Assembly (NCBI GenBank): GCA_965220935.1
Contig: OZ244857.1
Coordinates: 1,672,929 to 1,736,928 of the forward strand
Length of the DNA: 64,000 nucleotides
DNA from: Rhodothermales bacterium
GTDB lineage: Bacteria; Bacteroidota; Rhodothermia; Rhodothermales; Bin80
Direction: 5' to 3'
The translations under genes were made by a program, and so were the position numbers. Shown piece by piece: positions 1,170-53,471 of the stretch (its first letter is position 1; each line of letters starts with the position of its first letter). The notes beneath the pieces were generated by a model. The model searched no databases. It saw nothing but the letters and a program-made list of their open reading frames with translations, and had not been told where the DNA came from.

Positions 1170-1276
1170 TCACTGCACCCGCATCAAGTGCCCGACCTGC
1201 ACCGCTGATGTGCTACTTTCCAGCGAGCTGGCCATGACCCGATAGAGATAGGCCCCCGCAGGCAGGCTAACTGATC
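1170..1276 (-). other. Out-of-frame 3' tail that encodes the missing end of the T9SS C-terminal domain of the 1184..6652 gene
   Basis: In the alternative minus-strand frame this stretch reads SLPAGAYLYRVMASSLESSTSAVQVGHLMRVQ*. That aligns with the paralog's C-terminus LPSGPYLYQLRAISLEDHSSSVYVGHFISVQ*. The annotated frame instead reads LACLRGPISIGSWPARWKVAHQRCRSGT*. This implies a 1-nt indel near 1266..1276 (minus strand gatcagttagc). Confidence 0.8.
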
Positions 1277-4200: not shown

Positions 4201-6652
4201 TCGTACCCGCCGTGAGCCCCGTATGGCTGTAGGTGCGCCCCGTTCCCGTGTGTGCAGGCGTAACATTGGTCCACGTGTCCGTGCCATTGGGCGAGACTTC
4301 AATCTGGTAGCCCGTAATCGGTACCCCGCCTCTATTGGTCGGGGCTTTCCAAGACAGATTGATGGTCGTTTGCCCGTCGGCCGCAGCGGTCAACTCCGTA
4401 GGAGCCGCAGGGACCGTGGCAGGGAGGGTCGTGGTATTGGCCACATTGGAGACGGCCCCCGCTCCCTGCGAATTGATCGCGCTGACCCGGTAGTACCGCC
4501 TGGTGCCGGCATCCAAGCCCCCATGGACATAGCCGGTCGTGGTGGACCCAGTATTGGCCACCAAATCATCCCAGTTAGAGGTGCCATTGGGCGAGACTTC
4601 AATCTGGTAGCCCGTAATGGCTGCGCCCCCGGTATTGGTGGGCGCGTTCCAGGATAGGCTGATCGTTTCCGGGCCTTCAGCCTCGGCCCTTAACCCCGTG
4701 GGGGCCGCGGGCGTGGTGAGGGTCGGTGCCGCCGCCGTGGTCGCATTGACGGTACCAGAACTGGTGCCCTCACCCACCGAGTTGCGGGCAAAGACCCGGT
4801 AATGTCGCGTCGTGCCTGCGCTGAGCCCCGTATGGCGGTAGGTGCGACCTGTTCCGGTGTGTGCAGGCGTAACATTCGTCCATGGCGCATTTCCGTTGGA
4901 CGACCACTGCACCCGGTAGCCCGTAATGGCCCTGCCCCCATTATCGGCCGGGAGCGTCCATCTCAGATTGATCACCGTTTGCCCGTCGGCCGTGGCGGTT
5001 ACATTCCTGGGCACACCCGGAGCTGTGGCTGCGGCGGTCGTGGCATTGGCCACATTCGAGCGATCACTAAAGCCCAGCCCCGAACTATTGGCCGCAACCA
5101 CCCGGTAATCGCGCCGCGTCCCCGCCGAAAGTCCCGTATGCGAATAGGTGGTGGCTCCCCGGACGTCGGCCAAACCGGTCCAACTAGTTCCTTGATTCGT
5201 TGACACGCCAACGCGATAATAGGTAATGGGTGAGCCGCCGTCATCTGCAGGGGCCGTCCAGTTTAGGATGATCGTGGTGCGGCCCGAAGCCGTGGCCCTC
5301 AAGTTCCTGGGGGCACTGGGGCGCGAGGCGGCCGCGGTGATGGCCGTGGCGGAACTGGATGCCGCCCCTGCTCCTTCGGAATTGATCGCGCGGACCCGGT
5401 AAAACCGCTGGGTCGATGGCGCGAGTCCGGTATGTGTCGTGTCCGTTTTGGTGGTTTTGGTGTCAGTGACGAGAGTGCTGAAGCTGGTTTCGGATCGCAG
5501 CCTTGACTCAATCCGGTAGCCCGTGATGGCCGCGCCGCCGTTGTCGGTGGGGGCCGTCCATGTTAACTTGATCTTCGTCCGACCATCGGCGGTGGCCGTT
5601 AATCCCGTCGGAGCGGCGGGGGCGGTCAGGGCGGCGGTGGTAGGTTGAACCAATTTAAACGAATCATCACTACCAATGGCATTAATGGGTTGTACACTAA
5701 TGGTATATTTCGTGGATGCCATAAGCCCAGTGACCGTGTAACTTCTAACTGTTGGTTCAACATCAACGAAAGTTTCAGTACTAAAATCCTCGCCAACAAG
5801 AACGCGTACCCTGTACCCCGTGATCGGCGAGCCTCCCGTTTCTGTGGGTGGAGTCCACGAAATGTCAATGGTGGAAGGCCCCGTAACCGTCGCTGTAAGT
5901 GTCGCAGGTGAACCAGGGCGGGTGGCGCGACTAGTGGTGGGTTGAACAAATTTAAACGAACCATCACTACCAATGGCATTATTGGGTCGTACACTAATGG
6001 TATATTTCGTAGATGCCAGTAGCCCAGTGATCGTATAGCTTCTAACTGTTGGTTCAACATCAACGAAAGTTTCAGTTGTAAAATCCTCGCCAACAAAAAC
6101 GCGTACCCTGTACCCCGTGATCGGACTCCCCCCATCATCGCCGGGTGTCCATGAAACAGTAATCATGGAAGGGCTGTCAACTTTTGCTGTCAGTGTAGAT
6201 GGTGGACCAGGGCGGGTTCGCCCGTTGGTCGTTCCAGAGACGACATCGGACCAGGGACCATCCCCGTCGGCATCCCTACTTCGGATCCGGATATGGCGCG
6301 TGGTGCCTGGCGAGAGGCCAGTGAAAAGCGTTTCCGTTAGTCCGCCTGAAACCGTGCGAAGATCCTTCCAGTCTGAGGTTCCATCCGACGACCACTCAAT
6401 CTCATGCCCTGTGATGGCTTTATTCCCATTCGGGTTGGCCGTCCAGGAAATGGAAAGGGTCTCGCGTGCATTGCGCCCGGTTTGATAGGGTGCAACGGTC
6501 ACGCCTGTGGGTTTTCCGGGCGGGCGTTGGCCTGCCGTCGTCTCATGGAAGCGTTCTTGATCCGTGTCAGAAAGCGGAGTCGACTTTGAAGAAAGTAGGG
6601 CGTCGCCTGCAATCTTATTCTCACCGTCACGCTCTGATGCACTCAGCTGCAC
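1184..6652 (-). CDS. Giant fibronectin type III repeat surface protein with a T9SS C-terminal sorting domain. This is the central ORF; both the N-terminal signal peptide and the end of the CTD are out of frame.
   Basis: 1822-aa ORF. About 15 FN3 modules are recognisable from the recurring motif P..LTA.A.G.T.I.LSWTAP...GG..ITGY(Q/R)IEVS...HTGL..G..R.YRV.A.N. Two Ig/cadherin-like modules follow (MPYTYTLTPDLPAGL...GTPSE and VTYSFTVLSLPSGLLFD...SGTP). The sequence NYPNPFTRSTRIVFDLPWPAQVEIDVLDVTGRRV is a Por/T9SS CTD. The ORF starts at a GTG and has no signal peptide of its own. Confidence 0.9.
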   Translation of the reverse strand: MQLSASERDGENKIAGDALLSSKSTPLSDTDQERFHETTAGQRPPGKPTGVTVAPYQTGRNARETLSISWTANPNGNKAITGHEIEWSSDGTSDWKDLRTVSGGLTETLFTGLSPGTTRHIRIRSRDADGDGPWSDVVSGTTNGRTRPGPPSTLTAKVDSPSMITVSWTPGDDGGSPITGYRVRVFVGEDFTTETFVDVEPTVRSYTITGLLASTKYTISVRPNNAIGSDGSFKFVQPTTSRATRPGSPATLTATVTGPSTIDISWTPPTETGGSPITGYRVRVLVGEDFSTETFVDVEPTVRSYTVTGLMASTKYTISVQPINAIGSDDSFKLVQPTTAALTAPAAPTGLTATADGRTKIKLTWTAPTDNGGAAITGYRIESRLRSETSFSTLVTDTKTTKTDTTHTGLAPSTQRFYRVRAINSEGAGAASSSATAITAAASRPSAPRNLRATASGRTTIILNWTAPADDGGSPITYYRVGVSTNQGTSWTGLADVRGATTYSHTGLSAGTRRDYRVVAANSSGLGFSDRSNVANATTAAATAPGVPRNVTATADGQTVINLRWTLPADNGGRAITGYRVQWSSNGNAPWTNVTPAHTGTGRTYRHTGLSAGTTRHYRVFARNSVGEGTSSGTVNATTAAAPTLTTPAAPTGLRAEAEGPETISLSWNAPTNTGGAAITGYQIEVSPNGTSNWDDLVANTGSTTTGYVHGGLDAGTRRYYRVSAINSQGAGAVSNVANTTTLPATVPAAPTELTAAADGQTTINLSWKAPTNRGGVPITGYQIEVSPNGTDTWTNVTPAHTGTGRTYSHTGLTAGTTRHYRVYARNSKGTSAAASNVASATTAAVRAPGAPPDLQVFPTGFHDVRLTWGRPPSDSPITGYKVEWSTDGGTNWETLIGYDDLTRTRYEFLSSRLTPGSVFHFRVLARSASGDSAPSDAVSVTAASASGSGIATNVRVRQTSANAAQISWDAPTDLPSGHQTFGYNVYKSDDDGDFWSLFARDVTTTTYTDAQVSAGKTYGYRVTTWIGQSENESLQSQFSAAAFLTITIATATAPDAPTGLTATASGPTIINLSWTAPSNTGGADITGYRIEVSPNGTSNWTNQQANTRSTATTYAHTGLSATTTRHYRVRAINSVNSGAPSNVANATTAAATAPGAPTGLTATADGQTIINLSWTAPTNTGGAPITGYQIEVSPSGTSNWSDLVANTTATTYAHTGLSAGVTRHYRVRAINSVGPGAVSATRSATTDTPNATVPAAPTQLTATATGRTSINLSWTAPTNTGGAAITGYQIEVSNTGTANTWTNLVANTQSTTTTYAHTGLSAGVTRHYRVRAINSVGPGAVSSTSSATTDTPNATVPDAPSQLTATAAGRTSINLSWTAPSDNGGATITGYQIEVSNAGAWSELATTRATTYTHTNLAAGTTQVYRVRAINSVGNSDASNTVSATTDALATPDAPTELTITASGPSTLVLSWTAPLDDGGSAITGYRIDTSSDGQSDWTVLVASTPSTTYTVTNLPPPVYFRVIALNAIGQGTPSEVVNVTPKALSLSSTISDQIYPIGQPIAQVMLPEATDGTMPYTYTLTPDLPAGLTRSERTLRGTPSELTAMTSFTWAVQDATGSVARQDFGLEVYRMSFTTRVDDQVVPRGQPIGMLVLPEVSGGKDPVTYSFTVLSLPSGLLFDLPTRTVSGTPLAVTPPTPMTFKAVDVHGAEDSLNFSIEVVSTVHAEAQTALPQTLTVHANYPNPFTRSTRIVFDLPWPAQVEIDVLDVTGRRVYAHPLVSLTAGWEHELTLDQLACLRGPISIGSWPARWKVAHQRCRSGT
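2460..3160. repeat. Near-identical tandem DNA repeats with a 309-nt period (one FN3 module each) inside the giant gene
   Basis: The string caaccgaattgatcgcacgcacccgatagtgacgcgtcacgcctgccgaaagccctgtgtgcgcata occurs at 2641 and again at 2950, an offset of 309 nt or 103 codons. The flanking sequence is also nearly identical. Confidence 0.9.
5643..6236. repeat. Two tandem copies, about 297 nt each, of a low-G+C FN3 module
   Basis: Units start near 5643 and 5940 (ggttgaac(c/a)aatttaaacgaa(t/c)catcactaccaatggcatta...). They encode ...SPITGYRVRV(L/F)VGEDF(S/T)TETFVDVEPTVRSYT(V/I)TGL.ASTKYTISV... They are visibly AT-richer than the rest of the gene. Confidence 0.9.
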
Positions 6653-6659
6653 ACCCGTC

Positions 6660-6794
6660 TCACTGGATGAAGAAAATTGGGGGGGGGGGTAATCTCAAAA
6701 AGTAGTCACTCACATTTGTATGGAGAGAGTCAGCACTCACAACAGATCCGTGAGCCATAAAAGAAACGCAGAGTAAAGTATTGAGAATTAACAT
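6660..6794 (-). other. Detached leader ORF encoding the Sec signal peptide of the giant FN3 gene. It ends just after the poly-C tract.
   Basis: Hand translation from the ATG at 6794 gives MLILNTLLCVSFMAHGSVVSADSLHTNVSDYFLRLPPPPIFFIQ*. It has a hydrophobic signal-peptide core and then L-PPPP-IF, exactly as in the paralog (MPILNFLLVVLLAS...SSILPPPPIFSGD). It is in the +1 frame relative to ORF 1184..6652. Confidence 0.8.
6679..6689. repeat. G11 homopolymer (C11 on the coding strand) between the signal-peptide leader and the body of FN3 gene 1
   Basis: Counted directly from ...aaaatt gg ggggggggg taatc. A tract of C10 or C13 would fuse the leader to the 1822-aa ORF (TTA CCC CCC CCC CAA TTT TCT TCA TCC AGT GAG ACG GGT GTG CAG...). 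Confidence 0.95.
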
Positions 6795-20879: not shown

Positions 20880-23516
20880 TTAACTGGAATCTAAAATTTC
20901 AAAAAATGCTTCCTTAAACTCCTCCTTATTATGCCCCATTTGATTGAAAAAGGGCAATCCGCGCACAATGTACTCTTCTACCTGAAACACTTCTTGAACT
21001 TTATCAGTCCATTGTATATTCGCCATAAAATCTTGTTTCCATAAATCATTGGATATGAGATGTTCTCCTTTGGGCTCAATAAATAACTGGAGAATATTTC
21101 CAACTTCTTCACCTTTTTTCCGAAGAAATAAGATAAAGTCAGGCTCAAATCCCTCCCCATTTTCAAAAGAGTAAAGTTTTACGGCCTTTTCATTTCTCAG
21201 AAGAAAAAAATCATCATATCGTTTTTTGAGGTTTTCGGCCTCGTAATACAAATACTCAATGAAGCGCTTTTCCTCGCTTGTTCCATAACTCGTATCATAA
21301 GCGTGCCAATCTTCATCAATTGGATTAATAAGGTTTAGGTTCGGTAAATTGCTCTCCTTCCAGCTAAGCCCTTTTTCACCTTGAATTTTAATTTTCAGTG
21401 TCTTATCAACAAAGCACTGGCTGATTTTCTTACGCGTGAACTCAGTTGTTCCGACGAATTCTGCCCTACGACGCTTCAAACTAATCTCAATTTGATTAAG
21501 GGCATATTGTACAATTTTAACACTCTGACGAGCAGTTATTCGTTCAAGATCTTCACGATTTCCTCGAACCTGAATATTCACATTTCTTAGGAATAATTCC
21601 GAAGTTTGAAACTCTAGTGTACTTCGGAGGTGTGGAAAATATCTTTGTAGGTTAACGAAGTGAAAAAAATCATTGGAGTCCATGGCAAAATCCAAAATAG
21701 ATCTGTCAAATTCTGATACATTCAAGTTTTTAGAAACCACTGTAGAATTATTGCCACATTGACTTCCCCCTTCGTCATTGTGATTAAAGGCTGATATTTC
21801 GGTGACTTGTCCTGTCATCAGAGTGTGTGGAAATACAAAGTTTGTTTCTATTTCGTAGGATCTCAATTGGCCAATACTTTCAGGTAAGAACTTGCTTCTC
21901 CGATCATTGACCCACACATAACCGATCTTATAAAACTGTGATTGCTTAAAACTGTCTTTCAGACGTAGATGTACTGTACGGCTTTTTTCATCATGCATTC
22001 CGATTTTTTTAAGTGCTCGCTTAAGCTCATCAATGTATCTTGGATTATGGGAGCAGTGATAATGTAGCTCCTCCAAAATTCTTAGATTGTGTTCTATATT
22101 TCTATCGTACTTACGCTTTTCTGGTGTGGCTTCTGGTAAATCGGGATCCATAAACGGGAAATATCTGGCACCCCGCCCTATGAGTTGCGCCTCTGACATA
22201 GTTGTTGCGCCAATCCTTTCGCCTCTACTATCTCTAGTATTATATAGGCGCACAATGTCAAATAAATTTAGAACGTCCCATCCCTCATCCAACTTATTGA
22301 CTGCAAAAATTACTCGAAGATCATTAGATTTGTCTTCCAGATTGTTTAAGTCTATCTGAAGATCCTCAAGATCTATAAGTCTGTTTACATTTGCGGTCTT
22401 CCCGTCTCCAAAATCCCCTTTTAACTCAAGTGCAAAATCATCAAATTCTATTCCGCATTCGTCAATGATATATTCAAAAGCTCCTGATAAGGTCATGTCG
22501 TTCACTGATGAATTACGAATTTGTCTAAGATTATCACCAGACAATCCATTGACCATGGATACAAATAAAGTCTCATTTTCGGCCGATTGGGCAATAGTTT
22601 TGGACTTCATTAGAATCACAGGCTTACAAAATATTCCATGTGCTTCTGCTACTTTTCGCCTGTATTGACTTAACACCATGGCTTGTAGCATTCGATCATG
22701 CGGAGTTAAATCGGCCTGCCTTAATTCAATATCTTTTGAATATCCATCCGCCCTAAAATGCTTTAATTGGTAATCATAAATGACCTTGTCGTAATACTTT
22801 ATCTTAATTTCACTGTGATTGAGATCAGCAGTAGCAGTAAACTCCAATAGAATATTTTTAGAGTGTTGATCAAAAATAGATGTGACGGTATTTTCCCAGC
22901 TTTTGAGCCCAGTAACCTCGGTAGATGTTAAATTGTTTCTTGTGTGTGCATTTAGATGGTGAGCCTCATCCGAGATCATAACTATTTGGTGTTCCTGAAA
23001 ATCTTCCATTGTTACAGCATCTTCTCTGGGATTGAGCATTCTTGTGTGTAACCCTTGAATTGTAGTAAAATGAATATTGATCGTTTGAAGATTCGCTGCC
23101 TCAAAGGTATCAACTGCTTGAACTTCCACTTGCTTACCATCAATGCGTATGTTCTGACTGAATAAATATTTCAGCGATTGTGAGTTAAGAAAATTATCTC
23201 TGGTTTTTTCAATTATCTGATTTGAGTTTACAAAAAACAGGAAATTCCTATAGCCCCGACGATAAAGATCAAGTATTAAAGCAGCCATCAATACTGTTTT
23301 ACCGCTTCCTGTTGCCATGTGAAACAGCAAATGAGGTCTTGGTGATCTGTGGTTATACTTATCAATGTAGTAAAACCACCGTTCAATTGCTTCAACTTGA
23401 TAAGGACGAAGATTAATTCTTTGGGCAAGATTGTCAGTGATATTGGATGGTAAGTCTTTTTTTAAGATATCCTGCTCTGACAATGTGTCAAATGTTTCAA
23501 GAAGACTCCGTTTCAT
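20880..23516 (-). CDS. res: Type III restriction enzyme Res subunit (SF2 helicase + PD-(D/E)xK nuclease)
   Basis: 878 aa with motif I FHMATGSGKT, motif II MISDEAHHL and motif VI QLIGRGARY. The C-terminal nuclease-like segment is GFEPDFILF...LQLFIEPKGEHL. The start overlaps the upstream mod stop (ATGA at 23513..23516). Confidence 0.85.
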   Translation of the reverse strand: MKRSLLETFDTLSEQDILKKDLPSNITDNLAQRINLRPYQVEAIERWFYYIDKYNHRSPRPHLLFHMATGSGKTVLMAALILDLYRRGYRNFLFFVNSNQIIEKTRDNFLNSQSLKYLFSQNIRIDGKQVEVQAVDTFEAANLQTINIHFTTIQGLHTRMLNPREDAVTMEDFQEHQIVMISDEAHHLNAHTRNNLTSTEVTGLKSWENTVTSIFDQHSKNILLEFTATADLNHSEIKIKYYDKVIYDYQLKHFRADGYSKDIELRQADLTPHDRMLQAMVLSQYRRKVAEAHGIFCKPVILMKSKTIAQSAENETLFVSMVNGLSGDNLRQIRNSSVNDMTLSGAFEYIIDECGIEFDDFALELKGDFGDGKTANVNRLIDLEDLQIDLNNLEDKSNDLRVIFAVNKLDEGWDVLNLFDIVRLYNTRDSRGERIGATTMSEAQLIGRGARYFPFMDPDLPEATPEKRKYDRNIEHNLRILEELHYHCSHNPRYIDELKRALKKIGMHDEKSRTVHLRLKDSFKQSQFYKIGYVWVNDRRSKFLPESIGQLRSYEIETNFVFPHTLMTGQVTEISAFNHNDEGGSQCGNNSTVVSKNLNVSEFDRSILDFAMDSNDFFHFVNLQRYFPHLRSTLEFQTSELFLRNVNIQVRGNREDLERITARQSVKIVQYALNQIEISLKRRRAEFVGTTEFTRKKISQCFVDKTLKIKIQGEKGLSWKESNLPNLNLINPIDEDWHAYDTSYGTSEEKRFIEYLYYEAENLKKRYDDFFLLRNEKAVKLYSFENGEGFEPDFILFLRKKGEEVGNILQLFIEPKGEHLISNDLWKQDFMANIQWTDKVQEVFQVEEYIVRGLPFFNQMGHNKEEFKEAFFEILDSS

Positions 23517-24782
23517 AGATCTATTTTGTAGAATTTTCTGGTAATTTCTACATTTTCATCAGAGATTGAAAACCACTCATCGCCGAGTGAATGGATGTTA
23601 ACATATAAATGATTGGCATCCATACAATCTTTCAGCGCTCGCTTCGCATCATCCATGGAAAGATTCGTAAATTTTTCTGATGCAAAAGATTTCATATTGA
23701 CATCATAGCGAAGAAAACCAGTCTTTTGTATTTCGTTTTTGATGCAAAGTAGAGTTTTGAAGTCAGTAGCTGCGTCAATTTTCTCCATAAATTGTGAGTT
23801 AGAGTCTGCAAGTTGAGCATAAATAAATGAACCACCTCCTGCCCAGTCAACTACCTTAGAAACTCCACCCTGTTCGCCTTCAATGACCTTTTTTAGGCGG
23901 ATCTTGATTAAGTCATCAACATAGTTCATCTGTTCAATTGCAATCCATTGACGCCCCATCTTGTGAGCAACTGCTGGCGTGGTGCCTGACCCTGCAAAGA
24001 AATCCATCACAATATCATTCGGATTTGTTGATGCGCGGATGATTAGTTCTGCAAAGGCTTCTGGCTTTGGATAGGCAAAATCCACTTTCCCAAATATCTT
24101 ATTTCGTTCTTTGGTTGCTTTCTGATTCATGTATTGATTATCTGCACCTTCAAGGCTTCCAAGTAAATTATATTCGCTTTTGATTTCACTTAAATAGCGC
24201 TTAAAAATAAAGCCTCTCTGATTTTCAGAATGCTTTTTTCTAAATTTGATTTTTCCAGATTTAATGTAATCTCGAAGTCTCCCTCCCGAAAATAGCCACT
24301 GGCGATTTTCGGGAGGGAGATCAACTTTCCCTGTATATGGGTTCTTAATTGGAAAATAATAATCACCCGACCGAGCACTTGGATTATCACTTGCCCATGG
24401 TCCATTGGGATCATTGTCGGGGTTCTTGTAATTCTCAAATGTCTTTTTTTTACCAACTAATTCAATCTTGGACTTATCCTTTGCATAGATGAGTGTATTT
24501 TCGTGCTGAATATTAAATCCAGTTCTCGCATCATTAGTTGTTGACTTTGTCTTCCTTATTAAATCTCCCACGAAGTTCTCTCTTCTGAATATCTCATCCA
24601 TCAACACTTTGAGATAGGCCTGTTCATTATCGTCAATATGGATAACTATCAACCCATCATCTGTAAGAAACTGTTTGGCCACTTCAAGTCGATTACGCAT
24701 GAACGTGAGCCACGAACTGTGATTGAATCTGTCATTATATCTGAACCCATCATTCCCCGTATTGTAAGGGGGATCAATGTAA

Positions 24783-25391
24783 ATCAATTTCACTTTCCCC
24801 GCATAGCGAGTTTTCAGTGAATGGAGAGCTAAGAGATTATTACCCTTAATCAGCAAATTGTCATCTTCACGCACCTCACCTACTGCACTGGAAAATGCCC
24901 CCCCCCCCCCCCCATTTTTTCTGGATTGACACTCCAGCGCTCCCATCCTGTCAACACCTTTGGCTCAAACAATCTTGTAATGTCATCTGGAGACAACACA
25001 GTGTTCCAGAATATCTCTTTTCTCCCCCGATCTTCCTTTGTCATACCACCCTCCAAAACACAGTCCTTGTAAGGCCATGTAAGGACTACATCGCGTGACT
25101 GACTTAAATGATTCCCTCGCCCATCTACCAGACCAATACGATTTTTGAATGCCGTGTAACTGTTTGGGAGAAAGGTCTTGTTTGACACAAAACTTTGGAA
25201 TTTCACCTTGTCAAAAACCAGGGTTTTACCAACTTTGACAAAAAAGTGTGATTTGATTTTTTCGGATTGAAGTAGCAGTTCAAGAAGCCTTTTATCCAAA
25301 CGCAAGGCCGCTTCAATGACAACATTTCGGAGAATCTCTCCATCAGAAATATACTCAGACTCAGACTCTAATAACTTGATTAAATCGTTAA
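24783..25391. repeat. Direct repeat copy A: 5' module of mod copy 1 (609 nt including C16)
   Basis: By-eye alignment to 26830..27433 shows no differences apart from homopolymer length. The encoded N-terminal ~175 aa are identical in the two ORF translations. Confidence 0.85.
24898..24913. repeat. C16 homopolymer (G16 on the mod coding strand)
   Basis: Counted directly: ...gaaaatg ccc / cccccccccc / ccc atttttt. Tracts of G11, G14 or G17 would be in frame; G16 is not. Confidence 0.95.
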
Positions 25392-25562
25392 AGAGATTTT
25401 GCATGTTTGATGCTTATGACCGTGATTGTTCGGTTTGAAAGTTTATAAATTGATAGATCAATTAATGTTACCGTTAAATAGTATTCCAAATAAGACATAC
25501 GGGAGATCATCTCAAAGTCAAACCCTCAAAACCAGAAATATACGAACTTCTAAGTATAATCA

Positions 25563-27488
25563 TTACGAAATGCCGTAAAATTTACGAGTCAATTCTGCAT
25601 CTTCTTTGGAAATTGTATGCACTTCATCGCCGAGCGAGTTGAGGTTTACATATAGATTATTGGTATCCAAGCAATCCATCAACAAACGCTTTGCATCATC
25701 CAGAGGAATATTGAAGAAATCATTATCATCAAATGGTTCCAAGTTAACATCATATCTGAGAAAACCTGTTGCTTGAATTTGATTCTTTATCGCATAGAGT
25801 TTTGAAATATCAGTAGCGATAGAAATTTGATCTACAAAAACCGAATTTGAATCCGCAAGCTCTGCATAAATAAATGATCCACCTCCAGTCCATCCGATAG
25901 TTTTTGATATTCCACCTTGCTCACCTTCAATCACCCTCTTCATTCGTTCAATCGTAGTATTTTGGATATAATCCATTTGTTCAATTCCAATGAATCTCCG
26001 TTTCATTTTATGTGCGGTGCTAATAGTGGTACCGCTTCCTAAATGATAATCTAGCACAATATCTCCTTCATCGGTTGACAGTTGTATAATTCTTTCCATT
26101 AACCCCTCTGGTTTAGGATTAGCAAATACTTTTTGCCCAAATAACTGTTTAAGGTGTTGTGTGCCATTTGTAGTTGTTTGTAAATCTCTCCACAAGGTAG
26201 TTGTAACTTCCCCTCGTGATTTCGCTTCAGACCAAAATCTTTTTCTCTGAGGACCGGCTTCGCCAGAAATACCAAATACAATCCGACCATCAGCGAGTAA
26301 TTCATCAAAAACTTTTTTTTCATTTTTCCAACTATTTCCTTTATTGGGCTTATATACCACTCCTGTATGTGGATTAGTAATTTCATATAACTGATTAGGT
26401 CTTTTTCCCCCAACCTGGAAGGGATCTGCCACCCATTTGCCTCTTGCATCATTATCTGGATTTGAAAATTTACTTTCATCACTGGGGAGTCTAAACTGAG
26501 TTCTATTTTTCTTCAACTGTTTTATATCCTTTGAGTACAATAACAAATGAGTATGTGCATTGGAAATTAAAGCTGTATTGGTCACTGACTTTGTGGAATT
26601 CCATATGACATCAGCTACAAAATTATCTCTTCCAAAAATTTCATCCATCAATATTTTACAATAGTGCGCCTCTTCATCAGACAGTGAAATCCAGAATAAA
26701 CCATCCTTAGATAATAATTCTCTTGCCGCTTCCAAACGATTTCGCATAAACGTCAGCCATGTTGAATGCCTGAATCGGTCGTTATACTGGAAACCGTCAT
26801 TTCCTGTATTGTAAGGGGGGTCAATAAAGATCAATTTCACTTTCCCCGCATAGCGAGTTTTCAGTGAATGGAGAGCTAAGAGATTATTACCCTTAATCAG
26901 CAAATTGTCATCTTCACGCACCTCACCTACTGCACTGGAAAATGCCCCCCCCCCCATTTTTTCTGGATTGACACTCCAGCGCTCCCATCCTGTCAACACC
27001 TTTGGCTCAAACAATCTTGTAATGTCATCTGGAGACAACACAGTGTTCCAGAATATCTCTTTTCTCCCCCGATCTTCCTTTGTCATACCACCCTCCAAAA
27101 CACAGTCCTTGTAAGGCCATGTAAGGACTACATCGCGTGACTGACTTAAATGATTCCCTCGCCCATCTACCAGACCAATACGATTTTTGAATGCCGTGTA
27201 ACTGTTTGGGAGAAAGGTCTTGTTTGACACAAAACTTTGGAATTTCACCTTGTCAAAAACCAGGGTTTTACCAACTTTGACAAAAAAGTGTGATTTGATT
27301 TTTTCGGATTGAAGTAGCAGTTCAAGAAGCCTTTTATCCAAACGCAAGGCCGCTTCAATGACAACATTTCGGAGAATCTCTCCATCAGAAATATACTCAG
27401 ACTCAGACTCTAATAACTTGATTAAATCGTTAAGGATATTTTGTTGATTTCCTGAATAATCCTGATTTCTGTTCATGATTGATGCCAT
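25563..27488 (-). CDS. mod: Type III DNA methyltransferase Mod (copy 2, intact, N6-adenine beta-class order IV-TRD-I)
   Basis: 641 aa with IFIDPPYNTGNDGF (motif IV), a central region divergent from copy 1 (candidate target-recognition domain), and VLDYHLGSGTT (motif I). The poly-G tract encodes GGG in frame. Confidence 0.9.
   Translation of the reverse strand: MASIMNRNQDYSGNQQNILNDLIKLLESESEYISDGEILRNVVIEAALRLDKRLLELLLQSEKIKSHFFVKVGKTLVFDKVKFQSFVSNKTFLPNSYTAFKNRIGLVDGRGNHLSQSRDVVLTWPYKDCVLEGGMTKEDRGRKEIFWNTVLSPDDITRLFEPKVLTGWERWSVNPEKMGGGAFSSAVGEVREDDNLLIKGNNLLALHSLKTRYAGKVKLIFIDPPYNTGNDGFQYNDRFRHSTWLTFMRNRLEAARELLSKDGLFWISLSDEEAHYCKILMDEIFGRDNFVADVIWNSTKSVTNTALISNAHTHLLLYSKDIKQLKKNRTQFRLPSDESKFSNPDNDARGKWVADPFQVGGKRPNQLYEITNPHTGVVYKPNKGNSWKNEKKVFDELLADGRIVFGISGEAGPQRKRFWSEAKSRGEVTTTLWRDLQTTTNGTQHLKQLFGQKVFANPKPEGLMERIIQLSTDEGDIVLDYHLGSGTTISTAHKMKRRFIGIEQMDYIQNTTIERMKRVIEGEQGGISKTIGWTGGGSFIYAELADSNSVFVDQISIATDISKLYAIKNQIQATGFLRYDVNLEPFDDNDFFNIPLDDAKRLLMDCLDTNNLYVNLNSLGDEVHTISKEDAELTRKFYGIS
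26830..27433. repeat. Direct repeat copy B: 5' module of mod copy 2 (604 nt including C11)
   Basis: See 24783..25391. The copies are offset by about 2.04 kb in the same orientation. Confidence 0.85.
26945..26955. repeat. C11 homopolymer (G11 on the mod coding strand), in frame
   Basis: Counted directly: aatg cccccc / ccccc atttt. Confidence 0.95.
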
Positions 27489-47440: not shown

Positions 47441-50400
47441 TCACTGGACGCTGATAAAGTGCCCGACATAGACCGAAGATGAATGGTCTTCAAGAGAGAT
47501 CGCCCGCAATTGATAGAGATACGGCCCTGAGGGGAGTCCCAAATCGCTCAGTTCTAGTTCATGCCGCCATCCCGCGCTGAGGTGTACTTCTTGGGGCGCA
47601 GCCATGCGCCGCCCAATGATATCCAGAACCTCCACCTGCACCTGCGCAGGCCACGGCAGATCAAAGACTAAATGTGTTGACCTGTAGAATGGATTCGGAT
47701 AATTCGGATACACTTGAAACGCCTCAGGCAGCCCCGCTTCATCTTCGGTGTTGACCGGTGACACAACCTCTATGGTAAACATCAGACTGTCGCTCGCTCC
47801 ATTGGCATCGGTGGCCTTGTAGGTCAAAGAGACTGGCGGTATAACGTCTGTGGGCGTGCCACTGATCGTTCGGGCTAAGCCATCATAGCGAAGCCCAAGT
47901 GGGAGATCCAGTAGTGTTAAGGTGTAGGTAATCGGAGCTACGCCTGTGACTTCTGGAAGCACAAGTGGAGCAATGGGCTGAGCGCGGGAGTACGTCTGAT
48001 TTGGCACCGTCTCGGCAAACGACAGTTGATACACCTCAAGCGTGAAGGTTTGCTCTGTGCGCGTTCCCGCCTGATCTTGTACGCTGTAGGTATAGGTCTG
48101 AGCCGTGGCCACCTCGGAGGGCGTTCCGCTCAGCGTGCGCGTGGTCGCATCAAACATCAGTCCACTGGGGAGCTCTGGGGTTAAGGTGTAGCTGTAAGGG
48201 GCAATGCCGCCTGTGGCAACGGGAAAGACGAGGTCTTTCAGCAGCCTCTGCACGGGAACTCTCTGATCGTTGACCGTTTCGGTCAAGGTCAAGGCCTCGG
48301 CCTGAACAATCGCAATGGTAAACTGCTGCATCACTGAATGAGCACTGGCATCGGTCGCCGTGTAGGTATAGGTTTTCGGGGCCGTGACTTCGGTGGGAGT
48401 ACCACTTAAAGCCCGCGTAGACGCATTAAAGGTGAGACCCTTTGGCAACTCTGGGGTGAGCGTGTAACTGTAGGGAGGCGTTCCTTGCCGCGCGGCTGGA
48501 AGCATGAGAGCGTCAATGGCTAACCCGACATAATAGGATTGATCATCCAGCGTCTGAGCAAACGATAAGGCCACAGCATCATTATCGGTAATGGTGAGCG
48601 TAAACGCTGTGATGGATCCAAGTGTATAGGCGGTGCTACTGACCAGGGTCACGATGACGGTTTCGTCGGGTTCTTCGTCTTGGTCATCGACGATCACAAT
48701 GGGAATCTGTGCAGAGGTGCCATTGAGTGTGACCGAGGATTGAATCGTATAGTCCGAGCCCTGGGTGGCCGTCCCTGACAGGGTATAACTGAGCGTGGTC
48801 GCCGTGCTGGATGAGGCGCTGAGAGTCACGCTGATCGGATAGGTGCCCGCCGCTTCATCTACGCTGGCCGAGGCCACGGTAAAGGTGAGTGCTGGCGCAG
48901 TTGCGTCATCCTCTCCACCACCGTCGTCATCATCCCCATCTCTGTCATCACTCGCCGTGGTCGCATTAGCCACATTGGATGGCATCCCTGCACCTGCCGA
49001 GTTGATCGCACTGACCCGGTAATGCCGCGTCACACCTGCGGTCAGGCCCGTATGAGAATAGGAAGTCGTCGGATGACGCGCGACCAGCGAGCCAAATGTG
49101 GTCCCACCATCCGTGGATACTTCAATCTGGTAGCCTGTAATTCGCCCACCGCCATTACTTGATGGGGCCGTCCAGCCTAGGTTGATGATCGTTTGCCCAG
49201 AGGCGGTTGCGGTGAGCGATGTTGGCGCGCCGGGCACCGTCGGGTTTGCCGCATCCGCGGTCGTCGCCGTGGCCACATTAGATGCGGGGCCGGTATTAAC
49301 CGAGTTGATCGCACTAACGCGGTAATGCCGTGTCGTGGCTGCGGAGAGGCCGGTGTGCGCGTAAGGAGGCGTTGGGTGACTCGCTACCAGATCCGTAAAT
49401 GTGTTACCATCCGTGGATACTTCAATCTTGTATCCTGTGATTTCTGCACCACCCGTACTTGTCGGCGCTGTCCAACTCAGATTGATCGTCGTTTGCCCTG
49501 AAGCGGTGGCGTTGAGCGACGTCGGCGCACCGGGCGCCGTGGCTACAGCTGCGGTTGTGGCCATGGCCACATTGGACGGTGTACTTGTGTCCACATTATT
49601 GATGGCGCTGACCCGGTAGTGCCGCGTCGTACCTGCACTCAAGCCCGTATGAGAATAGGTCGTAGCCGTGGATTCGGTATTGTCCGCCAGATCGGTCCAC
49701 TCCGAGGTGCCATTGGGCGAGACCTCAATCTGATATCCCGTAATGCGCGTGCCACCCGTACTTTCGGGTGCTGTCCAACTCAGGTTGATGATCGTTTGTC
49801 CATCGGCCATAGCGGTCAGCGATGTCGGCGCACCGGGGGCGGTGATGGCCGGAGGGGTGCCCGTCTCGCCACGCACCACCTCGGACACAATGCCGACTGG
49901 AAAACGTCCCGTGATGGCGGTGACCCGATAATGACGCGCATCTCCTCTGGATAGTCCAGTATGTTGATAGAATGTGGCCGTGGACATGGTATTAGCCACC
50001 AGATCCGTGAAACTAGTGCCATCGGTGGATACTTCAATCTTGTATCCTATGACCAGAGAGCCTCCATGGCTCTCGGGCGGAGACCATCTCAGGTTGATGA
50101 TCGTATGCCCGCCCGGGGTTGCCGTCAGAGACTGGGGCGCCGTGGGCGCAGTCACCGTTCCTGTGATGCGGGCACGCACGATCTCAGACCGACTCCCCTC
50201 GCCCTTCGCATTGATGGCGCGTACAAAATAACGATAGGTCGAGTCCACCACTAAATCCATATGCGTATAACTTCGGATCGCCGGTCCAACGCTGGGCTGG
50301 TTATTCCATATATAATCACGCTCTCCGCTGAAATTATAATTCACCTCATAGCCCGTGATGGGAGACCCTCCGTCGTAGGGAGCGGTCCAGGTGATGGTGG

Positions 50401-51964
50401 CCGATCGATCCGTGCCGGCGGTCGCTGTCACTCCTGGTGGACGATTGGGTCTCACGCTTGGCCCCGTTGTGATGCGGATGATATTGGAGGGGTGTATGCT
50501 TTCTCCTGCCTGTCTGCTGATGGCATACACCCTGTAGTGATATACGGTCTCCAGGGTCAGCCCAGTATGGGTATAGGACGTCTCTACGGTCGTGAAGGAA
50601 GTAATGGGGCCCACCGTAGTCCAGCTATCGGTTCCATTAGGAGACACCTCAATCCGGTAGCCTGTGATTTGAAGGGTGCTCGCTGCGGGTGCGGTCCATT
50701 TCAGGCTCACTCGGGTGGGCGATCCCGAAGTGATGATCAGATTATCCGGCCGTCCCGTCATGGCCAAAGGGGGCGTCGGAGGGCCAGTCCCCGCCAAACT
50801 GATTGCACTGACGCGGTACTGGCGCGCCTGTCCCAACCAGACCTGCCCAGCATCGGTGGTATGGTCATGCGAGTAGGTTGTAGTCGTTGATTCGGTATCG
50901 TCTTCTAGCGTAATCCAGCTGCTCCCTGGAACTGTGAGTGAGAGGGCTTCCACCTTGTACCCCGTGATCGAGCTGCCTCCATCATCGGCGGGGGCAGTCC
51001 AGGAAAGATCCGTGGATTCAGATCCAGCGGTTGCACGTAATGCGGTTGGAGCATCCGGGGGATCCGTGAACGCAATGAAGACAGGATCTGAAAAATGACT
51101 GCTTCTAGTAATGAACTGATTACGACCATATTCCGAAGATATTACGTACCCATAGGTTTTGCCTATCTGTACATTATTGTCGGTATAGGTCAATGAGGTT
51201 GCGGGATGGGTCCTTTCAATTCGAGTGAGAAAATCTCCATTATTATCGGCACGAAACAAGGCATAAAAATAAACCTGATTTCCATCGGGGAGATCCGTCG
51301 GGGCATCCCAAGAAATCTGGGCTACATCAGTGGACGTTTTTGTTACCCTCACATTCGTGGCGATGCCTGGCCCTGAGGCAGCTATGGCCGTAGTGGAAGA
51401 TTCATTCGATGGAGCACTTTCTCCCTCCATATTCAGGGCACGAACCCGATAATGAAAGGTGGCACCTGGCGTCAATCGCAAACTCAGATGAGAGAATCGA
51501 CTAAGAGTTCTTTGGGTATCTCCAACCAAAACCTCCCAGTTTGTGCCACCATCGGTGGACCATTCAATCTTGTACCCCGTGATGGGAGAACCACCATCAT
51601 TGACCGGGGCAAACCATGACATATTGATTTGGTAAATGCCTGTGGGCGGCCCTGCCGAGAAATTCGTGGGGGGATCTGGTACGGCTTGACCTGTTGTCTC
51701 GGTGGAAACGAGTGTTGACCCTGCTGTCCAAGCCGTGATGGTTGTTGGTGTAATAGACGTTACGTCAGGTATTTCGCCAGCCAAGAGAGATGTACCCTCT
51801 AAAGACTCTGGCTCGGAAAATCCATCTGGCAAACTGCCTATGACGCGATCGCCCGAAAAAATGGGGGGGGGGGGCAGAATGGAAGAGTGACTATGAATCG
51901 CCCCACTTCCATCATTGGAAGCCAGTAAGACTACTAAAAGAAAATTAAGTATTGGCATTGTCAA
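47441..51964 (-). CDS. Giant FN3-repeat / Calx-beta / Ig-like surface protein with signal peptide and T9SS C-terminal sorting domain (intact paralog)
   Basis: 1507 aa. The signal peptide is MPILNFLLVVLLAS (likely ATG at 51958). About 9 FN3 modules carry the ..ITGY(K/Q)IEVS.. motif. A poly-Asp linker precedes a Calx-beta-like module (TLSYTLSGTATQGSDYT...IVIVDDQDEEPDETV). Four Ig-like modules follow (PYSYTLTPELP.GL.F...R.LSGTP). The CTD is YPNYPNPFYRSTHLVFDLPWPAQVQVEVLDIIGRR...GPYLYQLRA. Confidence 0.92.
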   Translation of the reverse strand: MTMPILNFLLVVLLASNDGSGAIHSHSSILPPPPIFSGDRVIGSLPDGFSEPESLEGTSLLAGEIPDVTSITPTTITAWTAGSTLVSTETTGQAVPDPPTNFSAGPPTGIYQINMSWFAPVNDGGSPITGYKIEWSTDGGTNWEVLVGDTQRTLSRFSHLSLRLTPGATFHYRVRALNMEGESAPSNESSTTAIAASGPGIATNVRVTKTSTDVAQISWDAPTDLPDGNQVYFYALFRADNNGDFLTRIERTHPATSLTYTDNNVQIGKTYGYVISSEYGRNQFITRSSHFSDPVFIAFTDPPDAPTALRATAGSESTDLSWTAPADDGGSSITGYKVEALSLTVPGSSWITLEDDTESTTTTYSHDHTTDAGQVWLGQARQYRVSAISLAGTGPPTPPLAMTGRPDNLIITSGSPTRVSLKWTAPAASTLQITGYRIEVSPNGTDSWTTVGPITSFTTVETSYTHTGLTLETVYHYRVYAISRQAGESIHPSNIIRITTGPSVRPNRPPGVTATAGTDRSATITWTAPYDGGSPITGYEVNYNFSGERDYIWNNQPSVGPAIRSYTHMDLVVDSTYRYFVRAINAKGEGSRSEIVRARITGTVTAPTAPQSLTATPGGHTIINLRWSPPESHGGSLVIGYKIEVSTDGTSFTDLVANTMSTATFYQHTGLSRGDARHYRVTAITGRFPVGIVSEVVRGETGTPPAITAPGAPTSLTAMADGQTIINLSWTAPESTGGTRITGYQIEVSPNGTSEWTDLADNTESTATTYSHTGLSAGTTRHYRVSAINNVDTSTPSNVAMATTAAVATAPGAPTSLNATASGQTTINLSWTAPTSTGGAEITGYKIEVSTDGNTFTDLVASHPTPPYAHTGLSAATTRHYRVSAINSVNTGPASNVATATTADAANPTVPGAPTSLTATASGQTIINLGWTAPSSNGGGRITGYQIEVSTDGGTTFGSLVARHPTTSYSHTGLTAGVTRHYRVSAINSAGAGMPSNVANATTASDDRDGDDDDGGGEDDATAPALTFTVASASVDEAAGTYPISVTLSASSSTATTLSYTLSGTATQGSDYTIQSSVTLNGTSAQIPIVIVDDQDEEPDETVIVTLVSSTAYTLGSITAFTLTITDNDAVALSFAQTLDDQSYYVGLAIDALMLPAARQGTPPYSYTLTPELPKGLTFNASTRALSGTPTEVTAPKTYTYTATDASAHSVMQQFTIAIVQAEALTLTETVNDQRVPVQRLLKDLVFPVATGGIAPYSYTLTPELPSGLMFDATTRTLSGTPSEVATAQTYTYSVQDQAGTRTEQTFTLEVYQLSFAETVPNQTYSRAQPIAPLVLPEVTGVAPITYTLTLLDLPLGLRYDGLARTISGTPTDVIPPVSLTYKATDANGASDSLMFTIEVVSPVNTEDEAGLPEAFQVYPNYPNPFYRSTHLVFDLPWPAQVQVEVLDIIGRRMAAPQEVHLSAGWRHELELSDLGLPSGPYLYQLRAISLEDHSSSVYVGHFISVQ
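51863..51874. repeat. G12 homopolymer (C12 on the coding strand), encoding PPPP directly after the signal peptide of FN3 gene 2, in frame
   Basis: Counted directly: at gggggggg / gggg cagaat. The minus strand reads ATT CTG CCC CCC CCC CCC ATT TTT TCG. Confidence 0.95.
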
Positions 51965-52079: not shown

Positions 52080-53471
52080 GGGCCTCCCGTTTTAAGAGTG
52101 GGTTGGCCGATTTTTGGTGCCTTCTGGATACAAATCAAGTCCACCAAGATAGAAGTAAATTGCATTCTTTAATCGTTCAGGATTTCTGAATCCACGCGCA
52201 CGGATTTTGATCATTTTGATGCGGCTATTGATGCTTTCAGCCGGCCCATTACTCACATCTAAAACCACCGCATTGATAATGCCCCAAAGATGATTTCTAA
52301 TGGTTTTAGCCACTTTTTTCATCGGCTCCAGACGACTGCGTGAGAGCCACCCTAACCAACGGTTCCATGCTTTGAGCGCCCAAGTGCGATGTTTATACTT
52401 CCACAGCGTCTGGAACACTTCTTTCATCGCCCAAGCGCGTGCTGTTTTCAGTGCACTGTTTTTCAAGAGACTAAACCGCTTTTTTTGCTTGGCCGACATG
52501 CTGGCCCGATTCTTAAGCCAATCATACTTTGTCCCTACCAAATCCAGAATCCCCAGTTTCTTTAACGCACGATTCTCCTCTCTGCGAACCTCATCCACCC
52601 CAGTTCCAACATATTTAGAGATATGAAAATGGTCAAATGCAATCGGCATCGGGTATACGCATCCTTGTTGCAGTGATGTAGGCAGGCCACATATCCATAC
52701 TCACACTTTCAATCCCTGCAATTTGCTCAGGTGAACAACTATCGTAGTACTCTAATAAACTCTCTATTGTTCGCCCCTCTGACACATGTAACACCGTACC
52801 CGTTGCAGGATCCGATACAATCGTCACATAGTTGTGCCCCTTCTTGGACGCTGTCTCATCTACGCAAATATGAGGCACGATCTTCTCTGGCTTGCGCTCC
52901 AATCCACGCTTGATTCCACGATCCATAATATGAGCGATCATCGTCCAACTCACCCCTAAGCGTTTCGCGATCACTGAAATGCTGGTTGCATCATGCAACC
53001 AATCCATCACACAGGCCTCAAAACTGGACGTGAATTGCACACGAGCATCGGCCCAAGGAACCGAAATCGTACTCACGCCATGCTGTGGACACTGCACACG
53101 CGGCACACTCGCGACCACCTCCGTACGATAATCACAGATATTCGTATGGCGCCATCGTCGCTCTCGGTGATCATATCCCGGACACGCCTTCCCACACTCC
53201 GGACACCTTAACTCCGCATCCCCCGAAAGCGCTACATGGATCCTCGCCGCATAACGACTCGTCTCCTGCTCAATCTCGGTCACCTCCCACGGTGACGCAA
53301 TACCAATCAAATGATTCACATCCGTTATTTTTAAAGCCATCTTTTTTTTTGATAAGTTGAAGGATAGATAAACAAATCTAAACTACTATAAAAATCCTTA
53401 CCGAACCTTATTCTTGTTACCCTCGTTTACCCATTTCTGAAAATATCACCCACTTAAAAAATGGGAGGCCC
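52080..53471 (-). mobile_element. ISL3-family insertion sequence, copy 2, with a perfect 8-bp target-site duplication
   Basis: It has the same terminal IRs as copy 1. CTCAAAAT occurs at 52072..52079 and again at 53472..53479, directly abutting both ends. An 8-bp TSD is typical for ISL3. Confidence 0.9.
52092..53340 (-). pseudogene. ISL3-family transposase split into two ORFs (52633..53340 and 52092..52649) by the same frame break as copy 1
   Basis: MALKITDVNHLIGIASPWEVTEIEQE...CPECGKAC...MDMWPAYITATRMRIPDADCI* then MPIAFDHFHISKYVG... Skipping one nt (the g of gcc-g-att) would give a continuous IPDA-IAFDHFH. Confidence 0.85.

Follow-up and report, generated by a model that had tools for sequence, protein, structure and literature searches.

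The second of two giant FN3 genes (gene 2) in the 64,000-nucleotide stretch of DNA analysed here, hereafter the window, carries an uninterrupted run of 12 cytosines at the junction between its leader and the mature protein, which raises the question of whether this run is an ordinary piece of coding sequence or a switch acting on its translation. The source organism is an uncultured member of the Rhodothermales, known solely from metagenome-assembled genomes (MAGs). The tract occupies 12 nt at positions 51863..51874 of the minus strand and is seen as G12 on the plus strand (...aaaaaatGGGGGGGGGGGGcagaatgg...); the coding strand reads TCC ATT CTG CCC CCC CCC CCC ATT TTT TCG (S-I-L-P-P-P-P-I-F-S). 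The initial annotation described the run as in frame and encoding ILPPPPIFS, and both the sequence and its translation agree, with the tract corresponding to codons 29-32 (Pro29-Pro32) of a 1505-codon ORF. The protein length of 1507 aa given there holds for the ORF counted in codons from a TTG (47441..51964, minus strand), whereas initiation at the leader Met at 51958 yields 1505 aa (47441..51958), identical to database protein P0001. The tract is directly abutted on its 3' side by A-T6-C (ATTTTTTC, 51855..51862, minus strand), and both alternative frames behind it reach stops within 7-31 codons. A change in length would truncate the protein early, as had been proposed, although not after about 35 residues: C11 (-1) leads to a stop after 39 aa, and C13 (+1) or C10 (-2) after 63-64 aa.

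Upstream of the tract, the leader MPILNFLLVVLLASNDGSGAIHSHSSIL (51875..51958, minus strand) has a hydrophobic core (ILNFLLVVLLA) and a possible cleavage position after SGA, and looks like a Sec signal peptide with an n-region that has no Lys or Arg, i.e. without the usual positive charge. The same leader type, M-x-[IL]-L-[NS]-x-L-L, was found in gene 2 and its paralogs. Downstream, the protein consists of eight FN3 domains, a Calx-beta-like region, three He_PIG Ig-like domains and a C-terminal segment resembling a T9SS (Por) type A sorting domain (YPNYPNPF..., 47501..47701, minus strand). The match of this segment to PF18962 is weak (16.1 bits, E 0.014) and lies below the gathering score of 27, as does that of gene 1 (likewise 16.1 bits vs a cut-off of 27); the tail also gives a weak NCBIfam match to the C-terminal end of a family of T9SS-dependent proteins, and precomputed PF18962 matches are listed for many gene 2 paralogs. 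T9SS is common in the group to which the Rhodothermales belong, and no genes for its machinery (PorK/L/M/N, Sov, PorU/V) occur within the 64-kb window. The giant FN3 proteins are probably exported by a type IX secretion system, and the combination of leader with FN3, He_PIG and Calx-beta domains is compatible with surface exposure of the family products. A cyanobacterial origin, suggested by the sequence GCGATCGC adjoining the tract, was rejected, as the T9SS-type tail and the genome match favour the Rhodothermales; in a GTDB genome scan with gene 2, one locus was found among the matches listed, in the Rhodothermales MAG OZ244061.1.

The region upstream of gene 2 contains an ISL3-family insertion sequence (52080..53471, minus strand; 1392 bp) with 24-nt terminal inverted repeats, an 8-bp target duplication (CTCAAAAT) and a transposase split into two ORFs. 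The near end of the element lies 122 bp ahead of the ATG of gene 2; the element is missing from a sister strain described below, and may influence transcription of gene 2 independently of the tract. A scan of the upstream region for sigma-70-type promoters gave fewer matches than shuffled sequences and is uninformative for this lineage.

A census of the window leaves little room for a chance origin of the homopolymer. Only four G/C runs of at least 7 nt were found (11, 11, 12 and 16 nt), with none of 7-10 nt and the next longest being 6 nt, and no simple-sequence repeats other than these four were detected in the window. The expected number of runs of at least 11 nt is approximately 0.009 (0.0065 for C and 0.0023 for G) against four observed, in agreement with the initial view that the tract is not a random occurrence, despite the genomic G+C content having been put at about 40%: the computed value for the window is 45.2%, with ~40-46% outside the two FN3 genes and 53-60% within them. 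Two of the four runs are located in the paralogous FN3 genes and two in Type III mod genes, so all four belong to gene classes typical of contingency loci. Gene 1 (1184..6794, minus strand) had been described as carrying the same kind of poly-C tract, and a C11 run was indeed found at the equivalent place, 6679..6689 of the minus strand, following the leader (ATG at 6794) and out of frame. There, the leader and an intact 1822-codon FN3 ORF, encoding 15 FN3 domains, He_PIG and a sorting-domain-like tail, are split solely by the frameshift at the tract, and C10 or C13 would restore the frame (ON).

The two mod genes, arranged in tandem, carry their G tracts on the coding strand. In mod gene A (25563..27488, minus strand; 641 aa), a G11 tract at 26945..26955 is in frame, and in mod gene B a G16 tract at 24898..24913 of the minus strand is out of frame, dividing the gene into two ORFs (24880..25404 and 23513..24946) that G14 or G17 would join. 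An exact-protein look-up of the 477-aa ORF of mod gene B returned no database record. The pattern TG-C(n)-ATTTTTTC-N-GG is common to gene 2 and the mod genes, in the latter on the non-coding strand.

The initial annotation considered genes 1 and 2 as a pair of switches; both do carry tracts, but the scale was understated, because the gene 2 family comprises at least 13 paralogs on the 4.08-Mb contig. In 11 of the 11 family loci read at the DNA level, a pure C8-C13 tract is found at the same position. This genome contributes lengths of 12, 11, 9, 13, 10 and 10, the sister-strain sample ERZ25070844 lengths of 10, 9, 8 and 9, and OZ244061 a length of 12. Relatives with an interrupted run of proline codons were looked for among these loci and none was found, the tract being pure and identically placed even across subfamilies sharing just ~38% identity. 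It is followed throughout the family by A(A)T4-6, and the residue behind the prolines (I, H, N or Q) is set by the codon phasing of the C run and its flank. At the protein level, a P(n)[I/H]F motif is kept across the family, although the four prolines of gene 2 are not themselves conserved, their number varying from 2 to 6 among homologs, with VVPVPS in the distant ones. Codon bias was ruled out as the source of the run: CCC accounts for only 23% of proline codons in the other genes and 37% in the FN3 genes, and about 30 consecutive pure CCC codons across loci are therefore not explicable in this way.

Among the six loci of this genome read as DNA, two are ON and four are OFF. The OFF paralogs, like the OFF ortholog described below, would need a change of just one or two bases to be ON, and immediately after the tract the reading frame stays open for 1294-1852 codons. 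In a census of gene calls covering the family members among the best 120 homologs, 16 had the leader in frame and 31 started in an alternative frame or downstream. This ratio of roughly one third ON to two thirds OFF is that expected if tract length drifts freely relative to the reading frame. Versions of one allele with another in-frame tract length (C9/C15) were sought in the database and none was obtained, the clusters of P0001, P0002, P0045 and P0006 all being singletons.

Length variation was also examined at the orthologous tract in the two closely related strains available for this comparison. The syntenic ortholog of gene 2 in the sister strain (L003) has C10 instead of C12, resulting in a frameshift and an OFF state; its PPase is 100% identical and the flanks are 99.5% identical. 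Over the initial ~400 bp of the aligned sequences, the 2-bp tract difference is accompanied by a single mismatch, located upstream of the start codon. Within the gene as a whole, all indels outside the tract are multiples of three. Length variation at the same locus, which the initial annotation had proposed to look for, is thus present, and a second near-allelic pair within the family differs by C9 vs C12. Since genes 1 and 2 are in different states here, and gene 2 is ON in this genome and OFF in the sister strain, switching appears to proceed locus by locus, consistent with the independence of the two genes suggested earlier. Gene 2 itself is 95.7% identical between the strains, compared with 99.5% in the flanks, with patches of 20-27% mismatch; this excess divergence is consistent with paralogs recombining with one another, a behaviour known from surface-variation families. 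Further alleles were searched for by other routes: exact-protein look-up of the PPase retrieved strain B and two assemblies of strain A and nothing else, that of the periplasmic-binding protein beside gene 1 only strain A, and a scan of JGI metagenomes with a degenerate form of the downstream flank (ATTTTTTCNGGNGAYCGNGTNATHGG) yielded two unrelated chance matches lacking the tract and hence no population variants from this collection.

All these tract lengths were taken from metagenome assemblies with Mb-scale contigs, and homopolymers of at least 10 nt are the least reliable calls of long-read platforms, so that an error of one base is possible in any individual length. It may accordingly be asked whether every copy is truly in frame and encodes a proline-rich structural spacer, the non-triplet lengths being consensus miscalls. 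The modest coverage of the window's contig (~11x), the conservation of the P(n)[I/H]F motif in the proteins and the fact that random plus or minus errors would also produce an ON:OFF ratio of about 1:2 are all compatible with this explanation. The OFF ortholog, however, derives from a circular contig with 1281x coverage, the two strains agree at all other homopolymers over 12.5 kb, and housekeeping genes with A8/T8 runs are intact. Moreover, the lengths span 8 to 13 rather than scattering by one around a single value, a proline spacer has no need of a pure CCC run given the share of this codon among proline codons, and the proline number is variable, with the run missing altogether from distant homologs. 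Assembly error combined with a structural poly-proline is, on balance, quite unlikely to account for the tracts.

It was also considered whether the frameshifts are real lesions, inactivating members of a redundant family that is being lost, with no selected reversible switch. The prevalence of apparently OFF copies, the IS elements that adjoin several family members, and locus L004, where loss of sequence has removed the leader as far as the tract, would fit such decay. Yet the OFF copies are devoid of a second lesion over their 1,294-1,852 codons, the restriction of within-gene indels between strains to multiples of three indicates purifying selection on the frame, the tract has stayed pure and fixed in position despite the wide divergence of the subfamilies, and tracts of the same kind are present in the mod genes. 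Taken together, these features render mutational decay very improbable.

The C12 of gene 2 is thus most probably a simple-sequence contingency locus operating by slipped-strand mispairing, within an Opa/Pmp-like family of likely T9SS-exported proteins. In the proposed mechanism, the nascent and template strands would misalign within the homopolymer at replication, so that a C is gained or lost. Because the run separates the export leader from the mature part of the protein, C6, C9, C12 and C15 would give the full 1505-aa product with its leader (ON), whereas translation would end after ~39 residues with C8, C11 and C14, and after ~64 residues with C10, C13 and C16 (both OFF). Such changes in length would be heritable and reversible, and with a leader-C(n)-A-T(4-6) module on every examined paralog, each cell lineage would display a different subset of FN3 proteins. 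G/C tracts of at least 8 nt slip at a high rate in Neisseria, Haemophilus, Campylobacter and Helicobacter, and the slippage rate of the gene 2 tract is presumably high as well; we infer that FN3 switching is reversible and of adaptive value.

An ATG in an alternative frame (MMEVGRFIVTLPF..., 51915..51917, minus strand) lies 41 nt upstream of the tract and, with C10 or C13, reads into the whole downstream ORF, which would generate a full-length product without a leader; the OFF allele of the sister strain is annotated from this very codon (P0002). A third, cytoplasmic state at C10/C13, arising from this conserved start, is a possible element of the unlikely coordinated system considered at the end of this paragraph. 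A separate explanation is transcriptional slippage or ribosomal frameshifting on C12/A/T6, whereby tract length would set the level of expression, both in- and out-of-frame genotypes yielding some full-length protein. Slippage of RNA polymerase on long homopolymers is well established, and here the long homopolymer is followed by a second run, T6; on the other hand, the process is best documented on A/T rather than C runs, and the nearby stops in both alternative frames are those expected of a null OFF state. Although it could coexist with slippage at the DNA level, such tuning appears extremely unlikely as the explanation of the locus. Finally, the FN3 family and the mod genes may be viewed as parts of a single coordinated, sequence-programmed variation system instead of as unconnected accidents, with at least 13 FN3 proteins each placed behind a leader-C(n)-A-T6 cassette and two alternative Type III methyltransferases bearing this cassette as well. 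The shared cassette would then imply a common mechanism that generates, stabilises or recognises the tracts, candidates being a dedicated factor or a polymerase/repair bias acting on C(n)ATTTTTT. This broader reading is unlikely.

The proposed slipped-strand switching of gene 2 has several counterparts among known systems. One is the Opa family of Neisseria, in which the part of the gene coding for the leader peptide contains CTCTT repeats: both are multigene families of surface proteins, putatively so for FN3, with one slippage-prone repeat per paralog in or next to the signal-peptide region and most copies OFF, and the independent ON/OFF control by translational frameshift and the recombination between paralogs seen in Opa are proposed for the FN3 family as well. 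They differ in that the Opa repeat is a pentamer and that of the FN3 family a C homopolymer, and in that Opa proteins are small beta-barrels of a human pathogen, in contrast to the FN3 proteins of an uncultured member of the Rhodothermales, which are arrays of 1,500-1,850 aa ending in a T9SS-type tail. The pmp genes of Chlamydia likewise encode numerous paralogous surface adhesins that are long and repetitive, several of them with coding poly-G tracts that vary among strains and whose length differences break the frame as in the FN3 family; however, Pmps are autotransporters (type V secretion) with tracts in some members, whereas the FN3 tract is present at a fixed position in every member examined. 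Phase-variable Type III mod genes are known as phasevarions, and the mod genes of the window, with G11 in frame and G16 out of frame, exhibit the same device in this classic gene class; they represent a neighbouring restriction-modification locus, while gene 2 encodes a structural surface protein and no regulator. Contingency genes with poly-G/C tracts in Campylobacter, Helicobacter, Haemophilus and Neisseria (e.g. a review, PMC8355987, and an N. meningitidis survey, PMC5084427) resemble gene 2 in their intragenic tracts of ~8-13 nt near the 5' end, their strain-dependent length polymorphism and their frameshift switching. The genes concerned encode surface structures and restriction-modification enzymes, in a different lineage and in different gene families, and their switching was demonstrated by experiment and deep sequencing, whereas here it is comparative data that argue for it. 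In Bacteroides, surface proteins and capsules undergo phase variation through invertible promoters and shufflons (e.g. PMC3090145, PMC10028968). The similarity lies in the membership of the Bacteroidota/Rhodothermota group and in an outcome whereby chance decides which of many surface structures are made and the decision is inherited; the difference is that Bacteroides relies on site-specific DNA inversion by recombinases and the FN3 family would rely on recombinase-independent slippage in a coding homopolymer.

The slippage mechanism itself is already well known; the organism and the protein family are new for it. In the literature searched, no report was found that connects switching by homopolymers with T9SS cargo or with the Rhodothermales. 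To our knowledge, phase variation studied in the Bacteroidota-related group is almost entirely invertase-based. Because approximately two thirds of the FN3 family genes are truncated or mis-started by gene callers, the family is under-reported in MAG annotations, and apparent homopolymer errors at FN3 tract sites in long-read MAGs are worth examining rather than polishing away. If confirmed, the present findings would show the contingency-locus strategy known from mucosal pathogens at work in an uncultured lineage of the Rhodothermales: independent homopolymer switches on the members of a surface-protein family that is large and recombines, combined with phase-variable methyltransferases.

Homopolymer analysis of the 64-kb window revealed only four G/C runs of at least 7 nt, with lengths 7-10 absent and the next longest run being 6 nt. 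On the forward strand, these are G11 at 6679-6689 (FN3 gene 1), C16 at 24898-24913 (modB), C11 at 26945-26955 (modA) and G12 at exactly 51863-51874 (FN3 gene 2). Base composition predicts approximately 0.009 runs of 11 nt or longer, and four were observed; the gene 2 homopolymer is not a product of chance, as the initial annotation had argued. No other simple-sequence repeats were found in the 64-kb window. The coding (minus) strand of gene 2 reads TCC ATT CTG CCC CCC CCC CCC ATT TTT TCG, and the C12 tract covers codons Pro29-32, confirming its described in-frame position about 30 residues into the protein. The previously reported length of 1507 aa applies to the ORF from the TTG codon (47441..51964), while the leader ATG (47441..51958) gives 1505 aa. 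The octamer GCGATCGC (51846-51853), located 2 nt past the ATTTTTTC flank of the tract, is the palindrome that in cyanobacteria is called HIP1. Here it codes for the G-D-R conserved within the family motif IFSGDRVIG and does not speak for a cyanobacterial origin, which was rejected because the T9SS-type tail and the genome match indicate Rhodothermales.

Pfam analysis of the gene 2 protein identified eight FN3 domains, a Calx-beta-like stretch and three He_PIG Ig-like domains. The C-terminus (YPNYPNPF...) resembles a T9SS sorting domain (PF18962; 16.1 bits, under the cut-off of 27), and PF18962 entries are present on many paralogs. The N-terminus, MPILNFLLVVLLASNDGSGA..., possesses a hydrophobic core as in Sec signal peptides, without a basic n-region, and is a putative signal peptide. 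Lys and Arg are consistently absent from the n-region of family leaders (MPILNFLL..., MLILNTLL..., MSTLSFLL..., MWLINLFIFF...; window positions 51875-51958 and 6690-6794, and homolog N-termini), an unusual property for Sec signal peptides, and the leaders extend from 23 to about 90 residues ahead of the tract, depending on subfamily. An identical protein is encoded on a 4.08-Mb contig as well as on the 1.80-Mb contig of ENA analysis ERZ25072152 (coverage of about 11x), and the sole GTDB genome match was OZ244061.1 ("MAG: Rhodothermales bacterium").

Gene 2 yields the full protein at C9, C12 and C15, a stop after 38-40 aa at C8, C11 and C14, and a stop after 63-65 aa at C10, C13 and C16. Early termination upon a single-nucleotide slip was thus correctly anticipated, although the estimate of ~35 residues was too low for both C11 and C13. 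At C10 and C13, the main ORF becomes continuous with an other-frame ATG that lies 41 nt 5' of the tract, forming a leaderless full-length ORF whose product, if translated, would not be exported. This is the ORF called as P0002 in the sister strain (from ERZ25070844), where the syntenic ortholog (L003) lies on a 4.15-Mb circular contig (1281x). Its neighbours match those of gene 2, the H+-PPase being 100% identical and the flanking DNA 99.5% identical. Over the first ~400 bp of the alignment, the two alleles differ only by 2 bp in the tract (C10 vs C12) and by a single mismatch 5' of the start codon; length variants, for which a search had been suggested, exist at this locus, and C10 puts the leader out of frame. 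The orthologous comparison covers two close strains, all that the collection contains. All other indels inside gene 2 are multiples of three and no other homopolymer differs over 12.5 kb aligned, making generic homopolymer noise unlikely. L015 and L002, likewise near-allelic, have tracts of C9 and C12 within almost identical flanks.

The homolog search retrieved more than 2,000 FN3 proteins, the closest of which derive from a handful of related genomes with many paralogs each; gene-1-type paralogs share 86-91% identity. Among the family members within the best 120 of these homologs, a leader with in-frame P(2-6)[I/H/N]F is present in 16; for another 11 the gene call begins at an other-frame ATG reading through the proline run, and for 20 at a codon just 3' of it, so that about one third appear ON (leader in frame) and two thirds OFF. 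Pro4, whose conservation was to be tested, is not conserved in number: the run varies from 2 to 6 prolines among homologs, and VVPVPS stands at this place in distant ones. The residue following the run (I, H, N or Q) results from the codon phasing of C(n)-A(A)-T(n).

A pure C tract followed by A(A)T4-6 occupies this position in nine of nine further loci whose DNA was fetched from metagenome assemblies, and the interrupted proline-codon run proposed as contrary evidence was not found in any of them. Together with gene 2 (P0001, C12), the loci in the ON state are L002 (P0006, C12), L009 (P0011, C10) and L015 (P0004, C9); those in the OFF state are gene 1 (P0045, C11), L003 (C10), L005 (P0012, C8), L006 (P0068, C9), L007 (P0052, C13) and L008 (P0062, C10). 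L004 (P0003, C9) has lost the leader. CCC represents 37% of proline codons in FN3 genes and 23% in other genes, ruling out codon preference as the source of roughly thirty consecutive CCC codons across loci. Assembly miscalls over a structural proline spacer are an improbable explanation, given the 1281x coverage behind the OFF allele L003, the agreement of all other homopolymers between the strains, the 8-13 nt span of tract lengths and the purity of the codons. Non-adaptive decay appears more improbable still, as every OFF copy keeps 1,294-1,852 codons open directly 3' of the tract, with ON one or two bases away, and indels are triplet-only. Transcriptional or translational slippage tuning expression, compatible with DNA slippage, is the least expected of these alternatives.

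Gene 1 (main ORF 1184..6652, with its leader starting from the ATG at 6794) carries C11 at the equivalent site behind a similar leader, in agreement with the tract previously attributed to both genes; the frame is broken at this length and would be restored by C10 or C13. The Type III R-M locus (20880-27488) comprises two tandem mod genes and a downstream helicase/res-like gene (878 aa). ModA and ModB share an identical N-terminal part of ~190 aa, differ in the central (target-recognition) part and are interrupted at matching codon positions by poly-G: G11, in frame, in modA (26945-26955), and G16 in modB (24898-24913), which is frameshifted/split and would be rejoined at G14 or G17. The locus looks like a two-allele phasevarion. 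Large surface proteins and Type III mod genes are classic contingency-locus classes, and all four long G/C runs fall within these two. The context TG-C(n)-ATTTTTTC-N-GG is shared by the gene 2 tract (51853-51876, minus strand) and both mod tracts (24896-24924 and 26943-26966, plus strand), the C-rich strand being coding in gene 2 and non-coding in the mod genes. ATTTTTTC occurs only 15 times on both strands of the window (about 1.2e-4 per position), and this sharing may reflect chance or a common sequence preference in the way tracts form or are stabilised.

Gene 2 identity between the two strains (95.7%) is far below that of the flanks (99.5%), with patches of 20-27% mismatch (about 49094-48907 and 48506-48307, also 50279-49883) and indels of 3 or 6 bp that keep the frame; such mosaicism suggests exchange or gene conversion among FN3 paralogs. 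The FN3 genes (1184-6652 and 47441-51560) have 53-60% G+C against a background of about 40-46% and a proline codon usage different from that of other genes; together with more distant homologs in Gemmatimonadota MAGs, this suggests foreign origin or strong amino-acid-composition effects. An ISL3-family element (52080-53471), with 24-nt terminal inverted repeats and the 8-bp target duplication CTCAAAAT, has inserted between gene 2 and the H+-PPase gene, starting 122 bp upstream of the gene 2 ATG; the sister strain lacks it. Two overlapping ORFs (52633..53340 and 52092..52649) make up its split transposase, with no homopolymer found at their junction. ISL3 or IS110 fragments also adjoin family members in L004, L005 and L009. 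In L004 (3650-3780), homology to the family leader breaks off precisely where the C tract begins, which is preceded by unrelated sequence with IS110/ISL3 genes; a rearrangement breakpoint may fall at this tract. The FN3 paralogs are dispersed among housekeeping genes rather than clustered: P0062 (1843 aa; L008 1-10532, ctg52284_11x_l 921442-931973) lies between nusG and rplK, within the otherwise conserved tuf-secE-nusG-rplKAJL cluster.

The proposed ON/OFF switching of two FN3 genes is thereby supported and extended to a family with at least 13 paralogs on the 4.08-Mb contig. Slipped-strand changes in C-tract length would switch gene 2 by frameshift, and we consider it quite probable that gene 2 encodes a phase-variable, probably T9SS-exported surface protein, one unit of a multigene family comparable to Opa and Pmp. 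The literature searched contained no account of homopolymer switching in Rhodothermales or of T9SS cargo, nor any mention of the accessions. The slippage mechanism is well known; the Rhodothermales lineage and the FN3 protein family are new for it.
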